Virus record (IMG/VR): IMGVR_UViG_2721755676_000006
Source: a virus
Taxonomy: Duplodnaviria; Heunggongvirae; Uroviricota; Caudoviricetes
DNA: 36,332 nucleotides
Reading direction: 5' to 3' (one strand)
The notes beneath the pieces were generated by a model. That model ran no database searches, was not told the origin of the DNA, and saw only the letters and a list, made by a program, of their open reading frames with translations. Numbering within the stretch: position 1 is the stretch's first letter; every line of letters begins with the position of its first letter. Below are positions 8,830-28,677 of the stretch, in pieces. A program made the translations under genes and the position numbers.

Positions 8830-10002
8830 TTACGCGCTGACCTGGCTGGCAAAATTCACCAGGTACTGATCGGTGATGCGCTGGCGCAGCATCAGATTTT
8901 CAAGTGGCGGCACTGGCGTGTAGTCATAGTCGATGGTGAGTTTTCCGGCTTTCAGCGTGTCTTTGTCGTTCACCGACTCATCCAGCCAGCAATCACCACC
9001 AATGAGATAGCCTTGACTGACCAGGCTGCGCATTTTGGCGCGGATACCTTCGATAATGTCGCGGGCCAGCGACGGGTTAAGCGGTTTATCCACCGCCCAC
9101 ATGTGTGCTTCTGCCATCGTGTCCATCAGCACCTGCGCCGTGCGGGTGTAGTTTTCGAAGGCAAAGAGCGGGTCATCACTCAGGCAGCGGGAACCCCAGA
9201 AGCGGAAACCGTCTTTACGCACAAGTGTGGTGACGTCGTTCTGGTTCAGCAGACCTGCATCGGTTGCCGGGTCCTGCAGATCCCAGAACACATCTGCAGA
9301 AATTCCGGTGACACCGTTCACGCCCACGTTGGACAGGCTTTTGTGCCATCCGGTCTGCTCGTCAATTTTGGCGCGCAGACCAAGCGCACGGGCGGTGGCA
9401 TATGCCGTTGCTTCGGCATTCAGCACCGTGTCCCAGCCAGTAAAGTCAGGCCAGATCAGCATCCCTTCGCGCTGGCTGAAGTTTTCACGGTAAGTGATCG
9501 CCTCCTGTACCGTCTTGCAGCCATACGCTGACAGGTAAGCAAATCCACGCAGGCTTTGCGCCACGCTCAGCAACTCAGTAGCTACCGCCTTGGTGTCGTG
9601 GCCTGGCACGCCGAGAATGCGCGGTTTAACGCCGAGCTGAGCCTGTGCAGATAACAGGGCTTTCATACCTGTTTTTTTACCTTCAGCAGTCACTGCGCCG
9701 ATGATATTGGTCGTGGTTTCGTCTTCCGTTTCACCCTGCGGCACACGCACAACAACGGTCACGGGTTTTGCCTGGTCAGCGATGGCATCCAGCGAACGAG
9801 CCAGCGTGCCTGACTCACCCGCTTTACCGCTGGCAGTCAGCACATCAGTGATCAGCACGGGTTTATTAAGAGGAAACATTTTTGCATCGGCATCATCGCC
9901 CGTGCAGACCATACCCACGATGGCGGTGCTCACCGTGGTAATGGATCGGGTGCCTTCGTTGACTTCAACAACGCGCACCCCGTGGTGGTAATCCTGAGCC
10001 AT
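8830..10002 (-). CDS. FI: contractile tail sheath protein
   Basis: 390-aa ORF, P2 FI-like; ATG at 10002 preceded by AGGAGG. Confidence 0.9.
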
Positions 10003-10077
10003 AGTGGCGAACCTCCTGATTGGATTAGGCTTCGCCCTATGTTGAAGTGATTGTGCCTGACAAACAGCTAAGCGCAG

Positions 10078-10097
10078 TTGTACCGTTATTCACACAA
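10078..10097. promoter_or_regulatory. candidate Ogr-dependent late promoter element (TTGT-N12-ACAA dyad) for the FI-FII-E-T-U-D operon
   Basis: TTGTACCGTTATTCACACAA read directly, about 80 bp upstream of the FI start; the same dyad recurs upstream of V and O. Confidence 0.4.
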
Positions 10098-10144
10098 AAT
10101 GACGGTATTTGTCTGCTTGCAGGGATAATCAAAATTATGCTGAT

Positions 10145-10711
10145 TCAGGGGGATTCATTGCTCTTATTTGCCGGAAATTTTCTATAAATGGTAGAAACGC
10201 CTACATCAAAAATCAGTGCAATACGCTGTCTTGATTCTCCGGCCTCGAGTAAACGTCCAATCTGTGCCCACTGTTCAGTGGTCAACTTAGGACGGCGTCC
10301 ACCTACTCTGCCTTTGGCACGAGCTGCAGCCAGCCCTGCCCTGGTACGTTCAACTATCAGTTCGCGTTCCATTTCAGCCAGGGCCCCCATGACATGAAAA
10401 AAGAAACGGCCCATTGGGGTGCTGGTATCAATACTGTCAGTCAGGCTTCGGAAATTCACGCCACGCTGACGCAACTCTTCTATCAGCGTAACAAGATGCC
10501 GCATACTGCGCCCCAACCTGTCTAGCTTCCAGACAACCAGCGTGTCTCCTGCCGATAGTGTCCTGAGCAGTTTTTTCAGCCCCGGTCTGTCGGACTTAGT
10601 GCCACTGATTTTATCCTCAAAAATCCGCTCACATCCCGCGCAGTTCAGTGCATTACGTTGCAAATCGGTGTTCTGGTCATTTGTTGACACGCGTACATAG
10701 CCAATAAGCAT
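10145..10711 (-). CDS. serine DNA invertase (Hin/Gin/Pin/Cin family)
   Basis: 188-aa ORF with N-terminal resolvase catalytic motif (YVRVSTNDQ), C-terminal HTH (GVSTIYRKF); adjacent to the tail-fibre genes. Confidence 0.9.
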   Translation of the reverse strand: MLIGYVRVSTNDQNTDLQRNALNCAGCERIFEDKISGTKSDRPGLKKLLRTLSAGDTLVVWKLDRLGRSMRHLVTLIEELRQRGVNFRSLTDSIDTSTPMGRFFFHVMGALAEMERELIVERTRAGLAAARAKGRVGGRRPKLTTEQWAQIGRLLEAGESRQRIALIFDVGVSTIYRKFPANKSNESP

Positions 10712-21866: not shown

Positions 21867-23633
21867 ATGAACACCACACTGACACCCGCAGATCTCGATC
21901 CCCGTCGGCAAGCCATGCTGCTGTACTTTCAGGGATACCGCGTAGCCCGCATTGCTGAAATGCTGGGCGAGAAAGTTGCAACCGTTCACAGCTGGAAAAA
22001 ACGCGACAAGTGGGGTGACTATGGGCCGCTGGATCAGATGCAGCTCACCACCGCCGCACGTTACTGCCAGCTCATTATGAAGGAGCACAAAGAAGGGAAA
22101 GATTTCAAAGAAATTGATCTGCTGGCGCGCCAGTCGGAGCGCCACGCGCGGATCGGCAAGTTTAACAATGGCGGCAACGAAGCCGATTTAAACCCTAACG
22201 TCGCCAACCGCAACAAAGGCCCGCGCCGTCAGCCTGAAAAGAATGTTTTCACCGATGAACAGATTGAGAAGCTGGAAGAAATCTTCCATTCCTCCATGTT
22301 CAACTACCAGCGTCACTGGTGGGAAGCCGGAAAAACCAACCGCATCCGCAACCTGCTGAAGTCACGCCAGATCGGCGCAACCTTCTATTTTGCCCGTGAA
22401 GCCCTGATTGACGCCCTGCTAACCGGACGTAACCAGATTTTCCTTTCTGCCAGTAAGGCACAGGCGCACGTCTTTAAGCAGTACATCATCGACTTCGCCA
22501 AAGAAGTGGAGGTGGAGCTGAAAGGCGATCCGATGGTGCTTCCCAACGGGGCCACACTGTATTTCCTCGGCACCAATGCCCGCACGGCCCAGAGTTATCA
22601 CGGTAACCTGTATCTGGATGAATATTTCTGGATACCGAAATTCCAGGAGCTGCGCAAAGTGGCATCCGGTATGGCTATTCACAAAAAATGGCGACAAACC
22701 TATTTTTCCACGCCATCCAGCCTGACACACAGTGCTTATCCGTTCTGGTCCGGTGCGCTGTTCAACCGTGGGCGCAACAAAGCCGATAAGGTGGACATCG
22801 ACCTGTCCCACAGCAATCTGGCCCCCGGCCTGCTGTGCGCAGACGGGCAATACCGCCAGATAGTCACCGTAGAAGATGCGGTGCGCGGCGGCTGTAACCT
22901 GTTCGACCTTGACCAGTTGCGCATGGAATACAGCCCGGACGAATACCAGAACCTGCTGATGTGTGAGTTCGTGGACGATCTCGCGTCCGTGTTCCCGCTC
23001 AGCGAGCTGCAGGCGTGTATGGTGGACAGTTGGGAAGTCTGGACCGACTTTCATGCACTGGCCCTGCGCCCGTTTGGCTGGCGCGAAGTGTGGATCGGTT
23101 ATGACCCGGCAAAAGGTACGCAGAACGGCGACAGCGCCGGATGCGTGGTGGTGGCACCGCCAGCCGTGCCGGGCGGTAAGTTCCGCATTCTTGAGCGTCA
23201 CCAGTGGCGCGGAATGGACTTCCGCGCCCAGGCTGACGCCATCAAAAAACTGACCGAACAGTATAACGTGACCTATATCGGTATCGACTCGACCGGCGTC
23301 GGTCACGGGGTTTACGAGAACGTGAAAGCGTTTTTTCCTGCCGTCAGGGAGTTTGTCTATAACCCCAACGTTAAAAACGCCCTGGTACTCAAGGCCTACG
23401 ACATTATCAGCCACCGCCGTCTGGAGTTTGACGCCGGGCACACCGACATTGCGCAGTCATTTATGGCAATCCGTCGCGCTACCACTGCCAGTGGCAACCG
23501 CCCGACCTATGAAGCCAGCCGCAGCGAAGAAGCCAGCCATGCCGATCTGGCCTGGGCAACAATGCACGCACTGTTTAACGAACCGCTGCAGGGCGAGTCC
23601 GCCAATACCAGCAATATTGTGGAGATTTTTTGA
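21867..23633 (+). CDS. P: terminase large (ATPase) subunit P
   Basis: 588-aa ORF, P2 gpP-like. Confidence 0.9.
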   Translation: MNTTLTPADLDPRRQAMLLYFQGYRVARIAEMLGEKVATVHSWKKRDKWGDYGPLDQMQLTTAARYCQLIMKEHKEGKDFKEIDLLARQSERHARIGKFNNGGNEADLNPNVANRNKGPRRQPEKNVFTDEQIEKLEEIFHSSMFNYQRHWWEAGKTNRIRNLLKSRQIGATFYFAREALIDALLTGRNQIFLSASKAQAHVFKQYIIDFAKEVEVELKGDPMVLPNGATLYFLGTNARTAQSYHGNLYLDEYFWIPKFQELRKVASGMAIHKKWRQTYFSTPSSLTHSAYPFWSGALFNRGRNKADKVDIDLSHSNLAPGLLCADGQYRQIVTVEDAVRGGCNLFDLDQLRMEYSPDEYQNLLMCEFVDDLASVFPLSELQACMVDSWEVWTDFHALALRPFGWREVWIGYDPAKGTQNGDSAGCVVVAPPAVPGGKFRILERHQWRGMDFRAQADAIKKLTEQYNVTYIGIDSTGVGHGVYENVKAFFPAVREFVYNPNVKNALVLKAYDIISHRRLEFDAGHTDIAQSFMAIRRATTASGNRPTYEASRSEEASHADLAWATMHALFNEPLQGESANTSNIVEIF

Positions 23634-24661
23634 TGGGAAAGAGTAAGAAGAACCGCGCTGCGTCGACGAAACAGATCCAGCATAAAGGCCAGACTTCAGC
23701 CGAAGCATTCAGCTTCGGTGATCCCGTTCCTGTTCTGGACCGCCGCGAACTGCTGGACTATGTGGAATGCGTACAGATGGATCGTTGGTATGAGCCGCCT
23801 GTGAGTTTCGACGGACTGGCGCGAACCTTCCGCGCCGCCGTGCATCACAGCTCACCGATTGCAGTGAAGTGCAACATTCTAACCAGCACCTACATCCCTC
23901 ACCCGCTGCTCAGCCAGCAGGCTTTTTCGCGTTTTGTGCAGGACTATCTGGTTTTTGGTAACGCCTACCTGGAGAAACGCACTAACCGCTTCGGTGAAGT
24001 TATCGCCCTTGAGCCTGCACTGGCAAAATACACCCGACGCGGGTTAGACCTGGATACCTACTGGTTTGTGCAATACGGCATGACTACGCAGCCGTATCAG
24101 TTCACGAAAGGCAACATTTTTCATCTGATGGAACCGGACATCAACCAGGAGATCTACGGCCTGCCCGGTTATCTTTCTGCCATTCCGTCAGCTCTGCTCA
24201 ACGAGTCCGCCACGCTGTTCCGCCGCAAGTATTACATTAACGGCAGTCATGCAGGCTTCATCATGTACATGACCGATGCAGCGCAGAACCAGGAGGATGT
24301 GAACAACCTCCGCAATGCGATGAAAAGCGCCAAAGGTCCTGGTAACTTCCGTAACCTGTTTATGTACTCGCCTAACGGTAAAAAGGACGGGCTTCAGATT
24401 ATCCCGTTGTCAGAAGTGGCGGCGAAGGATGAGTTCCTGAATATCAAGAACGTGAGCCGGGACGACATGATGGCGGCGCATCGTGTGCCGCCACAAATGA
24501 TGGGGATAATGCCTAATAATGTCGGGGGGTTTGGGGATGTGGAGAAGGCCAGTAAGGTATTCGTACGTAATGAATTGCTCCCGCTTCAGAAAAGAATAGA
24601 AGAACTTAATGAGTTTGTTGGATGTGAACTCATTAAGTTCATTCCTTATGACCTAAAATAA
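23633..24661 (+). CDS. Q: portal protein Q
   Basis: ATG at 23633 overlapping P stop (TGATG); 342 aa, P2 gpQ-like. Confidence 0.9.
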   Translation: MGKSKKNRAASTKQIQHKGQTSAEAFSFGDPVPVLDRRELLDYVECVQMDRWYEPPVSFDGLARTFRAAVHHSSPIAVKCNILTSTYIPHPLLSQQAFSRFVQDYLVFGNAYLEKRTNRFGEVIALEPALAKYTRRGLDLDTYWFVQYGMTTQPYQFTKGNIFHLMEPDINQEIYGLPGYLSAIPSALLNESATLFRRKYYINGSHAGFIMYMTDAAQNQEDVNNLRNAMKSAKGPGNFRNLFMYSPNGKKDGLQIIPLSEVAAKDEFLNIKNVSRDDMMAAHRVPPQMMGIMPNNVGGFGDVEKASKVFVRNELLPLQKRIEELNEFVGCELIKFIPYDLK

Positions 24662-24670
24662 AATATACAA

Positions 24671-24697
24671 ATGACACAAAAGTGTCATTTTATTTTA
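24671..24697. terminator. bidirectional hairpin ATGACAC-AAAA-GTGTCAT with flanking T-tract
   Basis: 7-bp inverted repeat between convergent Q and the AT-rich cargo operon; stop codon of the 174-aa ORF lies inside it. Confidence 0.4.
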
Positions 24698-25209
24698 TCA
24701 AGAGGCTTTACCCATTTCTCATGCAAATCCTCTAGCTTAAATGTATTATTTTTTGTCAACCATTTATGAACCAAAGCTATAATTTCTGACCTAGAATAAC
24801 GCTTATAATACAGTTCAGGATTTGCATTATATTGCTCTACTATATGTTGTCCAACTATTGCAAGTTGTCGATGGTCAATAGCGACTAAATCCCTATGCAT
24901 AGGATTTACAGCTTCAAACTTACTTTGCCCCGGATTGTTAGCTATCTGAACACCATTTTCTCTAAGCCAGTCCTCATCCAACCAAATAAGATCAATGATA
25001 TCAGGCGAGGACATAGTTGTAGCTAATGCAACAACGATTTTCTCGGCATCCTCTGTGGTAAAGTCAATTGAATCTGAAGCCCAAACAGAAAGAGTATTAT
25101 TCTTTGTTCGTGTACACCCAGTAATAGCATCGCCTGAAAAATTATCAGGCTGCAATGTTAAGTTAGGTTCCCATTTTGCAATTGATATTTTTCTTAACAA
25201 ATAACTCAT
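24685..25209 (-). CDS. hypothetical protein, third gene of AT-rich cargo operon
   Basis: 174-aa ORF; ATG overlaps the upstream stop (ATGA coupling); no recognisable motif. Confidence 0.6.
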   Translation of the reverse strand: MSYLLRKISIAKWEPNLTLQPDNFSGDAITGCTRTKNNTLSVWASDSIDFTTEDAEKIVVALATTMSSPDIIDLIWLDEDWLRENGVQIANNPGQSKFEAVNPMHRDLVAIDHRQLAIVGQHIVEQYNANPELYYKRYSRSEIIALVHKWLTKNNTFKLEDLHEKWVKPLDKIK

Positions 25210-25865
25210 TGCATGCGTCCCAAATAGTCTATGACAGATTTTTTATAATTATCCAACCAACTTATTCCAAAATCTCTTATTCCATTTAGATATAGTGCAA
25301 GTTGTGGATTGCCCCATCCTTCTGCCGCACGCAGAGCTGCTTCATTTACATATTTATCATCATAAACCGATGCAGCCAATATGATAGCATCAGCCTTATC
25401 ACCAAGAATTTCATATTCTAAGCAAGATGCAACACATATGAAATTTCGTAATTCATACGTATTTTTATTGCGAAAGAGGTCTAACCAAACCCGTTGAAAA
25501 ACCTCCCTAAAAACAAATGGATTTTCTTTGTAAAGGCCTTCAAGATAAAGTTGAGTCTTAGTGATTTCACCTTCAACATAATCTTCTGAAAATAGTAAAC
25601 TTATAGTCATTTTTTGTTTTTTAATGACTATGCTTTCAAAAGAATTATTTGAATCATCAATTTTTTTCAAAAAAAACGAGCCAGCTTGAACTGCTGTTTT
25701 ATTTGAATTTATTCTAATATCGTTAGCTACATAAGAGGATAATTTTTTTGAGTTATCAGATACTGATGAGTTAACCAAAAAACGGTCAAAGTTATTATCA
25801 TTAATAATAGTGTTAACTTCTGACGAAGCCTCAGACAAAATTATATTTCCATAATTTTTATCCAT
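25206..25865 (-). CDS. hypothetical protein, second gene of AT-rich cargo operon
   Basis: 219 aa from ATG at 25865 with GTGAGG RBS (track start 25904 trimmed); Asn/Ser-rich N-terminus, no recognisable motif. Confidence 0.55.
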   Translation of the reverse strand: MDKNYGNIILSEASSEVNTIINDNNFDRFLVNSSVSDNSKKLSSYVANDIRINSNKTAVQAGSFFLKKIDDSNNSFESIVIKKQKMTISLLFSEDYVEGEITKTQLYLEGLYKENPFVFREVFQRVWLDLFRNKNTYELRNFICVASCLEYEILGDKADAIILAASVYDDKYVNEAALRAAEGWGNPQLALYLNGIRDFGISWLDNYKKSVIDYLGRMQ

Positions 25866-25872
25866 GGCAGCC

Positions 25873-26568
25873 TCACTTATTCGTATAACGAGATAATTGC
25901 TCAATTAAATTGGCATTATTTTCTTGCAACTCACTAACAATAGAGTTCGCAGAATTAAAATCAAACCGAAGCGAATTATTTTCTGCCAATGTATTTGTAT
26001 CCACCTCAAAGTTTATTACTTCTGTTGGATGATTATTATTTACTAATGGAGTCTGAATGAAACAACGACGAACAGTACTCCCACTATTCACACTCTCATT
26101 TAAATTTTTCAAATTGACTCGCTCAACAATACGATTATCCCATTCAAATGGTTCTGCATTACGATGAGTGAATAGCTCTCTGTAAAGCCTGGAGTAATTA
26201 TCCTGACTATCATGATAAAAATATGAATTAATAACTGACAGTCTTGTCGCTTTTTTATTAGGGAATATTGACTGTAAAGACTTCATAATATCTTTAACTT
26301 TATTTATGAACTCTTCACTGGAACCGCCGACTCCATGAAAGACAATAGCCCCCAAGGGAAATTCAACCCGAAAATTTTGGTCAGGCGAAGTCATAATAAC
26401 TATTTGACGCTTTTCCCCTGTTAAAGCATTCAACTCCTGCCCAAACATGGGTAAAAGGGATAACGCAGCCAAATTAGACAACAGCATCGAAAGCACTGGC
26501 GGTGTAGCAGTGACATCAGAATTGTTTGTAAAATATGATGCTTGGTAATTTTGAAATAATAATTCCAT
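25873..26568 (-). CDS. hypothetical protein, first gene of AT-rich cargo operon
   Basis: 231-aa ORF with strong AGGAGGA RBS; soluble, no recognisable catalytic motif. Confidence 0.6.
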   Translation of the reverse strand: MELLFQNYQASYFTNNSDVTATPPVLSMLLSNLAALSLLPMFGQELNALTGEKRQIVIMTSPDQNFRVEFPLGAIVFHGVGGSSEEFINKVKDIMKSLQSIFPNKKATRLSVINSYFYHDSQDNYSRLYRELFTHRNAEPFEWDNRIVERVNLKNLNESVNSGSTVRRCFIQTPLVNNNHPTEVINFEVDTNTLAENNSLRFDFNSANSIVSELQENNANLIEQLSRYTNK

Positions 26569-26723
26569 TTTATCCTCCTGAACAATTCATGCGCCATTTG
26601 GCACGAACAATCATTCTTTCAGTATATTAGATTATCCACACAGCTACTAGTAGCCTAACGAAGAAACGGCATAACTGGTCTACTTCGGAAATCCAACAAC
26701 ATAATGGTACCAGCTTGCGCGCG

Positions 26724-26742
26724 CTCGTATCCCCGCCACGCC
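26724..26742 (-). other. candidate cos cohesive-end sequence (P2/186-like)
   Basis: Minus-strand GGCGTGGCGGGGATACGAG; the first 13 nt match my recollection of the 186/P2 cohesive-end consensus GGCG(T/A)GGCGGGGA. Confidence 0.4.
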
Positions 26743-27013
26743 TGCCCGCTTTATATAGTGGTTTTCATGCACCTGCATGACATAAGCAAAAGCCCGCCAT
26801 ACCTAGCAGGCCCCAACTAGAGCGATCCTTAAACGATCATGCGGATTCATGCAGTATAGACATGCAGTAGTTACGCCAAACCGTGTAGCGAGGCCACCTG
26901 CTAAAAATGTTCACGGAGTAACATTTGATCTCCACTGCAAAAAATGAAACTTTCGCTTTCACCAAATATAACAAGAGGTAATCTTTGGTGTTTTACACAG
27001 CAAACGGTGAGCC

Positions 27014-27595
27014 ATGAAAGTCAACATAAAACAGATTGTTGGAAATTGGGAATTAGGTCTTGCGATGGATAAACACAGCATCCGCAGCATTCCCATTGGT
27101 TACGATGAGTGGGGACATATGCGGTTTGAGACGGAGCGTACTGAGGTAGGCGAATCTCTTTTCCAGCTTAAATACCGTGACGATTGGTCACAAGTTAAGC
27201 CTTTAGCCCAATGCCTAGCAGAGCATGCCTTTCCTCATTTCAGCAATGTCGGGTTTATCGTTCCAATGGCTGCATCTAATCAGCGTGCACGCCAGCCAGT
27301 GACCGAAATAGCTCAGGAACTAGCCAAACTAGTTGGCAAACCATGCTTCGATGACCTCTTGTTGAAAGCCCCCGGCGGGGCATCGCTAAAGAACCTGAAT
27401 ACAAAAGAAGAGAAAATCACGGCGCTGGGTAATTCGTTCTCTGTTAATGACAGTATTGAGAATAATGGCAACTGGAATGTCCTTATCATTGACGACCTCT
27501 ACCATACAGGCGCATCTATGGAGGCTGCTTGTGCTGTGCTAAACGATTATACTAAGGTTAGAAGCATTTATGTTGCAGCTTTGACTTGGAGATAG
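27014..27595 (+). CDS. phosphoribosyltransferase (PRTase)-like protein
   Basis: 193-aa ORF with PRPP-binding-loop-like motif VLIIDDLYHTGASM near the C-terminus; AT-rich. Confidence 0.55.
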   Translation: MKVNIKQIVGNWELGLAMDKHSIRSIPIGYDEWGHMRFETERTEVGESLFQLKYRDDWSQVKPLAQCLAEHAFPHFSNVGFIVPMAASNQRARQPVTEIAQELAKLVGKPCFDDLLLKAPGGASLKNLNTKEEKITALGNSFSVNDSIENNGNWNVLIIDDLYHTGASMEAACAVLNDYTKVRSIYVAALTWR

Positions 27596-27597
27596 TG

Positions 27598-28155
27598 ATG
27601 ACTACGGTATTTGTTGCTGGTTCAATAACCATCAAAAACCTTGACACACTCATCGTGGATCGTCTGAAAAAAATTGTTAACTCGCGTTTTCGTATTGTAG
27701 TTGGTGATGCCAATGGTGTTGATTCATCTGTTCAACGCGTATTGCTAGAACTTGGATGTGAAAAAGCCACAGTATTCAGTAGCTCAGAAAAACCGCGCAA
27801 TAATCTTGGCTCATGGCCTGTACATGTAGTAAGTACTAGCCATGCAGCCGGCACTCGCGCGTTTTTCACTGCGAAAGATCTCAAAATGGCAGAAGAAGCC
27901 GATTATGGATTAATGGTTTGGGATACGAAGAGCACGGGTACTCTGAGTAACGTGATTGAGCTTCTTAAACGTAAAAAATACTCTGTCGTTTTTGTTAATA
28001 AATACAAAAAGTTCTTTATTATCAAATCTCCAGAGCACCTTGACGCTTTGATTAACTGCATGTCACCAGCCTCTTTGGAAAAAGCTGATGAAAAGATCAG
28101 ATTGCGCGAAAAAATCAACCAACTAAAAAACGAGCAAATCCAGATGTTTATGTGA
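27598..28155 (+). CDS. DprA/SLOG-like Rossmann-fold protein
   Basis: 185 aa from ATG at 27598 with GGAG RBS; motif RIVVGDANGVDSSVQRVLLELG resembles the DprA/LOG glycine-rich nucleotide-binding loop. Confidence 0.4.
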   Translation: MTTVFVAGSITIKNLDTLIVDRLKKIVNSRFRIVVGDANGVDSSVQRVLLELGCEKATVFSSSEKPRNNLGSWPVHVVSTSHAAGTRAFFTAKDLKMAEEADYGLMVWDTKSTGTLSNVIELLKRKKYSVVFVNKYKKFFIIKSPEHLDALINCMSPASLEKADEKIRLREKINQLKNEQIQMFM

Positions 28156-28244: not shown

Positions 28245-28478
28245 TTAATGCAGCCAGCTGTCGTCTTCCCACACCTTCTGCATAATTTTCATCACTTGTT
28301 TTCTTTCTTCGTCCAGTTGCAGTCCGGTCAGTTCCACACCGTTAGAGCTACCTTTTCGGATACGAATTACCGTTTTGGGATACAGGGGGCGCAGATTGCG
28401 GTAAAGCTCGGATTCAAGGGCGTCCAGGGTAGACTGGCTAATCTTCTGCTCTTTATCGATCATTATTTCAATGCGCAT
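28245..28478 (-). CDS. dinI: DinI-family protein
   Basis: 77 aa from ATG at 28478 with GAGGTGA RBS (MRIEIMIDK...VWEDDSWLH); size and acidic C-terminus as in DinI. Confidence 0.65.
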   Translation of the reverse strand: MRIEIMIDKEQKISQSTLDALESELYRNLRPLYPKTVIRIRKGSSNGVELTGLQLDEERKQVMKIMQKVWEDDSWLH

Positions 28479-28488
28479 AAAAGTCACC

Positions 28489-28677
28489 TCAACTGATGAC
28501 ATCCATTGAGCGGTTGTATTCGTGAGTTCTGATTTTTGCCATGAGTTCATCAGTCAATTCAGAAACCCACTGCAGGGCCAGCCCCTTCTCTTCATCACTA
28601 CACTCACTAGCCGCTACAAGCTTAAGAAAAAAATCAATGCGCTGGAGCTTCAAAGACTCCAAAAAATAGTCCTGCAT
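28489..28677 (-). CDS. small hypothetical protein (possible Tum-like antirepressor N-terminal module)
   Basis: 62-aa ORF directly downstream of a LexA box and upstream of the DinI-like ORF, in a different frame. Confidence 0.4.
   Translation of the reverse strand: MQDYFLESLKLQRIDFFLKLVAASECSDEEKGLALQWVSELTDELMAKIRTHEYNRSMDVIS

Follow-up and report, generated by a model that had tools for sequence, protein, structure and literature searches.

What is an AT-rich block of three small genes doing between the portal gene and the packaging site of a P2-like prophage? This question is raised by a viral DNA stretch of 36,332 nucleotides (IMG/VR record IMGVR_UViG_2721755676_000006, Caudoviricetes), the whole of which we call the window, and in which three open reading frames (ORFs) lie on the minus strand between portal gene Q and the cos site (24685-26568). 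The original prediction, made from the sequence alone, had taken them for an operon of unrecognisable proteins and for a candidate undescribed defense or accessory module. We find that this operon is a foreign, self-contained and strictly syntenic cassette that is mobile among phages, islands, plasmids and chromosomes, and that is unrelated to the systems described so far. It is an old, mobile unit, and it probably serves in defense. The novelty lies in the three protein families and in the way they are combined, while the kind of thing that they represent, a mobile cargo of the defense or toxin-antitoxin (TA) type in a phage hotspot, is familiar.

We name the genes A, B and C in their order of transcription. 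Gene A (25873-26568, 231 aa, WP_021823668), gene B (25206-25865, 219 aa, WP_077625515) and gene C (24685-25209, 174 aa) were all found on the minus strand as anticipated, and since all three are RefSeq coding sequences and each has conserved homologues, they are not chance ORFs. Upstream of gene A, the ribosome-binding site (RBS) CAGGAGGATAAAATG can be read directly, with its AGGAGGA motif (26573-26579, minus strand) 4 nt before the start codon (AGGAGGA-TAAA-ATG). The leader that separates it from the cos core (26580-26723, minus strand) is the presumed promoter region. Genes B and C are joined by the expected ATGA overlap, GCAATGAGT. The junction between A and B had been described as a start 9 nt inside the end of gene A, and this had to be corrected: the ATG of gene B (25865) lies 7 nt past the TGA stop of gene A (AAG TGA GGCTGCC ATG), is preceded by its own RBS (GAGG), and is the start annotated in RefSeq, while the median gap between A and B in homologous loci is +8 nt. 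The ORF as such (25904/25865-25206) gives 232 aa from a TTG and 219 aa from this ATG. The AT-richness that had been estimated by eye is borne out by computation. The operon has 34.1% GC (35.2, 31.2 and 35.6% for A, B and C, respectively), as compared with 54.2% for the terminase and portal genes P and Q and 52.3% for the rest of the window, and it is the lowest-GC block within the window; line by line (60 nt), GC varies from 22 to 50% in the operon and from 30 to 75% in positions 1-21000. At the distal end, a hairpin with a 9-bp stem and T-runs on both strands (24669-24690), retained from a terminator scan and from reading the sequence, overlaps the stop codon of gene C and is predicted to be a convergent terminator that Q and gene C have in common and that works in both directions.

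The operon is located between Q and cos, as had been proposed, since Q (23630-24661, plus strand) stops at 24661 and the P2-type cos core lies at 26724-26742 (minus strand). This core, the 19-mer GGCGTGGCGGGGATACGAG, is a unique exact match that marks the upstream boundary of the cassette; 14 of its 19 bases match the P2 core and 5 differ, and it is identical to the cos stretch that Rousset et al. 2022 (PMC9122126) give for their Escherichia coli E1114 clone. The 186 bp around cos (26715-26900) are common to about 1,250 of 5,426 complete E. coli genomes, at 80-100% identity. The cos-proximal interval from gpA to gpQ is indeed the cargo hotspot that the original prediction had invoked, and it is the one described by Rousset et al. 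2022 (PMC9122126). The operon has the features of P2 A-Q hotspot cargo, as it is variable, compositionally foreign, cos-adjacent and placed between gpA and gpQ. In P2, the accessory genes old and tin are found on the gpA side of cos, which is the opposite side from the operon (pFD239 insert; Rousset et al. 2022, PMC9122126).

The downstream boundary of the cassette appears to lie within Q itself. The low-GC tract begins inside the last ~60 nt of this gene (24600-24661, plus strand, 29% GC), and the final ~20 residues of its product diverge from those of P2 Q. Furthermore, in a Klebsiella variicola integrase-AlpA-primase island that carries the three genes, a 71-aa remnant of the Q C-terminus (84% identity) directly follows gene C (9948-10163 of the island locus). 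Thus, the cassette seems to take the 3' end of Q along when it moves, and this end is the likely downstream recombination boundary. A perfect inverted repeat with a 17-bp stem, GAACTTAATGAGTTTGTTGGATGTGAACTCATTAAGTTC, is also found inside the 3' end of the Q coding sequence, just upstream of the shared terminator (24602-24640, plus strand), and it could be a recombination or a regulatory site.

Close homologues of A, B and C form 20, 18 and 30 clusters, respectively, at 90% identity. The C profile, compared with 1.84 billion representative sequences, retrieved 1,804 clusters (at 50% identity) with E <= 1e-3, of which 787 reach E <= 1e-10, and among the 150 matches listed almost all are stand-alone proteins of 160-200 aa. 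The genomic context was gathered through exact-protein look-ups, a genome scan, a viral scan, and BLAST searches of phages and plasmids, and all ORFs were scored with the profiles of A, B and C (for the genome scan, a narrower C alignment was used, the broad one being too divergent). The A-B-C order is kept in 41 loci. The junction between B and C spans -8 to +5 nt in 40 of these 41, with a median of -1, and the B-C pair is retained even in loci where A is very divergent.

The elements that carry this triplet are of many kinds. Further P2-like prophage loci were found in E. coli (a second allele, with ~56% identity in C), in Pantoea and in unassigned IMG/VR contigs; gene C always adjoins the end of Q in the P2-like loci, and in the six others that have a recognisable cos core, 117-166 bp separate this core from gene A downstream of it. 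All 19 loci of the IMG/VR viral scan have the complete triplet, and about 10 IMG/VR phages that carry it show no match to a P2-type portal or terminase. In Acinetobacter phage Ab105-1phi, the triplet comes after the genes for tail fibre and lysis. Outside phages, it adjoins an insertion sequence (IS) near gyrB-recF-dnaN in a Pseudomonadales chromosome, and it is present in chromosomes of Microbulbifer, Kushneria and Thalassomonas, in a metagenome-assembled genome (MAG) of a Planctomycetota, and in gut Clostridia (Blautia, Lachnospiraceae, Faecalimonas and Clostridium). A 4,375-bp ColE1-type plasmid of Klebsiella quasipneumoniae (NZ_OW968434.1, 220-2031) has no other cargo than the triplet, which is also carried by a 7.5-kb MOBQ plasmid of Acinetobacter (NZ_CP114612.1, 2879-4681). 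The A-type gene of Clostridia has diverged strongly: hhalign aligns it with the proteobacterial family at an E of 0.0086 over 152 collinear columns, and the motifs sNRvA, E..N and D.NT..EN..RF are common to both; the A proteins of the Acinetobacter phage and of the Klebsiella plasmid match both profiles, and are thus bridging intermediates.

Two of the clostridial loci place the triplet next to defense genes: in an uncultured Clostridium MAG, it comes directly after Wadjet jetC-jetD (E 1.5e-166 and 2e-129; locus L021, 19-6516), and in a Blautia MAG it follows a gene like the PADLOC candidate PDC-M13/M10 (E 1.6e-47; locus L018, 3761-6516). After the triplet of the Clostridium MAG there are also two small ORFs whose first residues look by eye like those of a SocA-type antitoxin and a MazF/PemK-type toxin. 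Decayed copies exist as well (loci L022, 5566-6348, and L025, 2402-2833), one with a B truncated to 143 aa and a C truncated to 115 aa, and another reduced to an N-terminally truncated C, whose neighbouring ORFs resemble, when read by eye, a RelB/ParE pair. For all its breadth, the cassette is rare, as its two alleles are found in 2 and 4 of the 5,426 complete E. coli genomes, and only 2 of the ~1,250 that have the window's cos region carry it. Strain 210205630 of E. coli (NZ_CP015912) has a P2-like prophage that the window matches, with 100% identity over the 2.3-kb query.

Curated collections give no match to the three proteins. The hidden Markov models (HMMs) of PADLOC-DB v2.0.0, which cover the systems of Gao, Millman, Rousset and Vassallo as well as the PDC candidates, do not match A, B or C at E <= 0.1; they match the 63 relatives of C in no consistent way, and the triplets from Clostridia/Bacillota and Planctomycetota not at all. 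Pfam and NCBIfam are equally without a match to A, B and C, and neither these nor PADLOC revealed any homology to morphogenesis or packaging functions. The PHROGs database places the three proteins in three families of unknown function (19817, 21208, which is that of B, and 10743). Searches of all PDB sequences with five alignments of the families were empty or at chance level. The qualification of these proteins as unrecognisable thus holds for curated families, while the predicted structures recover a fold for A and a weak lead for C.

The module is not entirely undescribed either. The operon is catalogued in Table S5A of Rousset et al. 2022 (PMC9122126) as an untested "hypothetical + hypothetical + hypothetical" entry (WP_021823668 + WP_021823669 + WP_021823670), and the first of these accessions is that of the window's gene A in RefSeq. 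In the supplement of the DefensePredictor study, gene B is labelled "Predicted novel defense gene" with a mean log-odds of 7.04, the stringent cut-off being 4 (Science 2026, PMC13092281), and we saw no sign of this gene having been cloned. The accessions of the operon proteins appear only in these two supplements and in none of the main texts of the literature searched. The cassette has thus been catalogued and computationally flagged, and we found no description, name, phenotype or mechanism for it in a comparison that did not extend to Brenes & Laub 2025.

Protein C is the proposed effector. Its AlphaFold2 model, built from the family alignment (predicted local distance difference test, pLDDT, 90; predicted template modelling score, pTM, 0.84), predicts an N-terminal beta/alpha domain (~residues 1-112) followed by a small helical C-terminal part. 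All its structural neighbours are weak or sub-threshold, and 16 of the 20 top chains are proteins of the ADP-ribosyltransferase (ART) fold, which include Tse2, AvrPphF/HopF, Tpt1/KptA, RES toxins, CC0527, NarE, DarT, SidE, heat-labile enterotoxin, CopC, ArtA and MbcT. Foldseek ranks Tpt1 at the top (E 0.057, probability 0.82), with TreTu and NarE lower and none at E <= 0.001. Among 63 diverse relatives of C, residues W13, S41, W43 and H105 are invariant, and R6, K7, K12, D27, T35 and D107 are present in at least 90%. In classical R-S-E ARTs, strands 1, 2 and 5 carry the Arg, Ser-Thr-Ser and Glu-x-Glu motifs. The model of C would place R6, S41 and H105-x-D107 on predicted strands 1, 2 and 5, so that this non-canonical set may be equivalent to the R-S-ExE motifs of the classical enzymes. 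We tentatively regard it as possible that C is an effector that uses NAD+.

The AlphaFold2 model of protein A, also built from the family alignment (pLDDT 88, pTM 0.86), predicts a pseudo-duplicated two-layer alpha/beta fold, the first half of which would follow the strand-helix order S1-H1-S2-S3-S4-S5-H2 of the repeat of TATA-binding protein (TBP). The best structural matches are to ATP-dependent enzymes (McsB, arginine kinase, GCL, GS and PafA), and non-enzymatic TBP-like proteins resemble it equally well. Residues P40, N161, N192 and R201 are invariant throughout the superfamily, and R109, E142, E158 and F202 nearly so. A TBP-like or guanidino-kinase-like resemblance is thus predicted at the level of the fold only, which is the reason why we do not accept membership in the guanidino kinases. 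As compared with the catalytic domain of phosphagen and protein-arginine kinases (McsB, arginine kinase) and with TBP-like folds, A has ~10% identity, no Pfam or NCBIfam match, and catalytic residues that are not demonstrably conserved. Assignment to the ATP:guanido phosphotransferases was rejected, as A has neither a match to the family HMM nor a demonstrable conservation of the catalytic Arg/Glu/Cys set. A link to TIGR04255 is retained as no more than a lead, since a single one of 19 A-family members matches it weakly (E 0.009, far below the family cut-off) and the window protein does not. The proteins of that uncharacterised and sporadically distributed family are similar to A in size; their function is not known, and they are not mentioned in the literature searched.

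Protein B is made of two contrasted parts. In the family alignments, the N-terminal ~90 aa are hypervariable in both length and sequence, of low complexity, and rich in Ser and Asn, while the C-terminal ~125 aa are conserved and helical, with invariant G99, E182, W184, W203, Y207 and L215. Faint HEAT signals can be found in this C-terminal part (out of 22 members, one matches HEAT_2 at E 0.0026 and two match UTP20_N), and the DefensePredictor study gives an HHblits probability of 59.7 between B and a HEAT protein (PMC13092281).

From these elements we propose that the three genes form an autonomous conflict module of three components, which spreads horizontally and is here the cargo of a P2-like prophage, in the interval between cos and Q. 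It is most likely an anti-phage system of the abortive-infection, TA-like type. Protein C, once released, would either modify a macromolecule by using NAD+ or consume NAD+, and growth would stop. Protein B, which is translated just upstream and coupled to C, would keep it inactive by means of its conserved HEAT-like C-terminal domain, and its hypervariable, probably disordered N-terminus may be a degron or the point of contact with a phage trigger. Protein A would be a sensor or adaptor, whose beta-saddle, like that of TBP or guanidino kinases, may bind a phage product or a small ligand and so control the B-C pair. These parts do not deserve the same trust: the inhibitory role of B is somewhat unlikely to be right as we word it, and the sensory role of A is a fairly doubtful guess. 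We would give just under an even chance to the overall proposal of an autonomous defense or TA-like module with C as its effector. In its most explicit form, that of an ancient and widespread tripartite immune module in which a TBP/guanidino-kinase-fold sensor responds to a phage product by releasing an R-S-HxD ART-like effector from a HEAT-like inhibitor, it is unlikely.

Several lines of evidence speak for a conflict module with C as effector: the foreign GC content, the A-B-C synteny, the range of elements, the defense neighbours, the log-odds of B, the patchy rarity, and the variable N-terminus of B next to its conserved C-terminus. The layout of the B-C pair is that of a type II TA-like module, as a small upstream partner is translationally coupled to a small downstream gene and conserved with it. 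In addition, a phosphoribosyltransferase (PRTase) like those of ShosT and PsyrT lies with a DprA-like partner across cos. Other observations weigh against this proposal. No convincing promoter was found upstream of gene A, where sigma-70-like matches reach 8/12 at best (for example TGGATA-17-AATGAT at 26638-26610). Protein C and its 63 relatives match no ART, RES, DarT, Tpt1 or PD-T4-9 (CmdT) profile among those of Pfam, PADLOC and the PDB sequences. The defense neighbours are two anecdotal loci to which no statistic is attached, the status of sole cargo on small plasmids is equally compatible with a pure addiction module, and both phage resistance and toxicity of the cassette are properties that we infer. 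The original prediction of a defense or accessory module is thus consistent with the mobility, with the Wadjet and PADLOC-candidate neighbours and with the score of B, the defense phenotype itself being presumed.

The alternative that survives best concerns the chemistry. Since S41 and H105 are invariant in C and D107 is present in at least 90% of its relatives, C could be a Ser-His-Asp-type hydrolase, or else a non-enzymatic binder, and its ART matches are sub-threshold; A, which resembles guanidino kinases and glutamine synthetase, has ATP-dependent enzymes as its best matches and conserves R109, E142, E158 and R201, could then be the enzyme. We consider this quite unlikely. ART-fold proteins are strongly enriched among the matches of C by two methods, and the same strand carries both H105 and D107, at a distance of two residues, an unusual geometry for a triad; as for A, it lacks a Pfam match to the ATP-guanido phosphotransferases and is equally similar to TBP-like proteins that are not enzymes.

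The plasmids point to another explanation, in which the operon would be a selfish addiction module of the TA type, which stabilises its carrier elements post-segregationally and has no function in phage resistance. The triplet is the sole cargo of the ColE1-type plasmid and is present on the MOBQ plasmid, the coupling of B and C is that of an antitoxin followed by a toxin, and genes like RelB/ParE and HicB were read from the ORFs beside some relatives. This explanation is nevertheless improbable, as the preferred site of the cassette is a phage defense hotspot, in a prophage that needs no stabilisation of the plasmid type, three genes exceed the minimal TA pair, and gene B has a high score in defense prediction. 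Moreover, many TA modules double as defense systems, so that addiction and the conflict module proposed here overlap.

Phage hotspots also house anti-defense genes and other cargo, and host proteins are conceivable targets for binding or inhibition by both a TBP-like fold and a HEAT-like protein. The operon might therefore have another accessory role, such as counter-defense against host immunity, competition with other phages or satellites by means other than abortive infection, or lysogenic conversion, all the more so as the toxic activity of C is itself only presumed. An anti-defense set would be expected to remain with phages, however, and the cassette is also found on an IS-adjacent chromosome and on tiny phage-free plasmids, and it adjoins Wadjet in a Clostridium genome. 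We regard such a role as distinctly improbable.

That the operon could be the hp+hp+hp system of three hypothetical proteins, which we take to be the Rst_3HP of DefenseFinder, or some other system that already has a name, is very improbable. This system is one of three from the P2 hotspot that were validated beside old-tin; it comes from E. coli E1114, acts against P1, and consists of proteins of 333, 359 and 227 aa, whose sequences are given in Table S2A (Rousset et al. 2022, PMC9122126). The original prediction had mentioned a three-hypothetical-protein system from such hotspots, and the likeness is real as far as it goes: both are made of three co-directional genes without recognisable domains, adjacent to cos in the gpA-gpQ hotspot and next to the same variant of the cos core. 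The window proteins (231, 219 and 174 aa), however, have no significant similarity to the published ones in blastp (E >= 0.3) or phmmer (E >= 0.06) searches against a four-sequence database, so that the identity with Rst_3HP is refuted at the sequence level. Neither A, B and C nor their distant relatives match PADLOC v2, and the 2026 DefensePredictor study (PMC13092281) still labels gene B as a putative novel defense gene. The 2026 preprint of Moura de Sousa et al. names further systems, from P4 hotspots (Crouga, Bandua, Aernus, Toga, Reve and Hailong), and these were ruled out by their different architectures. Finally, a morphogenesis or packaging accessory, which is suggested by nothing but the position near portal, terminase and cos, is effectively excluded by the rarity of the operon among P2-like prophages (2 of the ~1,250 E. 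coli genomes mentioned above) and its presence outside phages, to which its foreign GC and the lack of a structural annotation in PHROGs can be added.

The surroundings of the cassette show how the hotspot is occupied in this prophage. On the Q side, the terminase gene P (21867-23633, plus strand) precedes Q. On the gpA side of cos, a second cargo module (27014-28155, plus strand) encodes a ComF-like PRTase of 193 aa (PADLOC ShosT 1.3e-8, PsyrT 1.5e-7), whose gene overlaps that of a 189-aa SLOG/DprA-like protein (PsyrA 0.019; phrog_289). Table S5B of Rousset et al. 2022 lists a near-identical pair as system #98 (33 loci), where the 189-aa protein has one substitution, and this pair is a much shorter relative of the validated DprA+PRTase system from that study and of ShosTA. 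Within one prophage, the gpA-gpQ hotspot can thus accommodate two modules that are unrelated and flank the packaging site, and as they lie on both sides of cos they would occupy opposite ends of the DNA in the virion. Further on, a DinI-like gene (28245-28550, minus strand; Pfam DinI, 1.3e-22), with an ORF of 101 aa as called mechanically and of 77 aa in the annotated DinI, and a 62-aa ORF upstream of it (28489-28677, minus strand; 28245-28677 for the two) recur beside gpA in most related P2-like loci, and appear to be semi-core genes rather than cargo. They are followed by the replication gene A of the phage (28830-31250, minus strand).

If the A-B-C cassette protects against phages, it would be a new three-protein system, whose families are absent from Pfam, NCBIfam and PADLOC and yet common (~1,800 clusters of C at 50% identity). 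If the tripartite scheme is true as well, bacterial immunity would gain an effector family and a sensor fold that are both new, with P2-like phages, other temperate phages and small plasmids as their vehicles. The cassette would make a test case for the silencing of a non-canonical ART-like domain by a HEAT-like partner, for what a TBP-like fold can sense, and for the exchange of Q-side cargo at cos with a piece of the portal gene moving along. New defense systems now emerge by the dozen, and this cassette is one of many such candidates.

Among known systems, those whose ART-fold proteins dominate the structural neighbours of C are DarTG, the RES-Xre pairs (MbcTA and ParST) and Tse2-Tsi2, which likewise associate a small toxin with an upstream partner on mobile elements. 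CmdTAC (PD-T4-9), from the work of Vassallo et al. in 2022 and 2024, is reportedly a tripartite toxin-antitoxin-chaperone defense system with an mRNA ADP-ribosyltransferase as its toxin. At the sequence level, membership of A, B or C in the CmdTAC, DarTG or RES-Xre families fails. It is in the architecture that the resemblance is found, since the operon is, like CmdTAC, a three-gene cassette of the defense type, which may here combine an ART-fold toxin with a labile partner and with a third component that senses or acts as an adaptor, and this makes CmdTAC the closest working analogy for the cassette.

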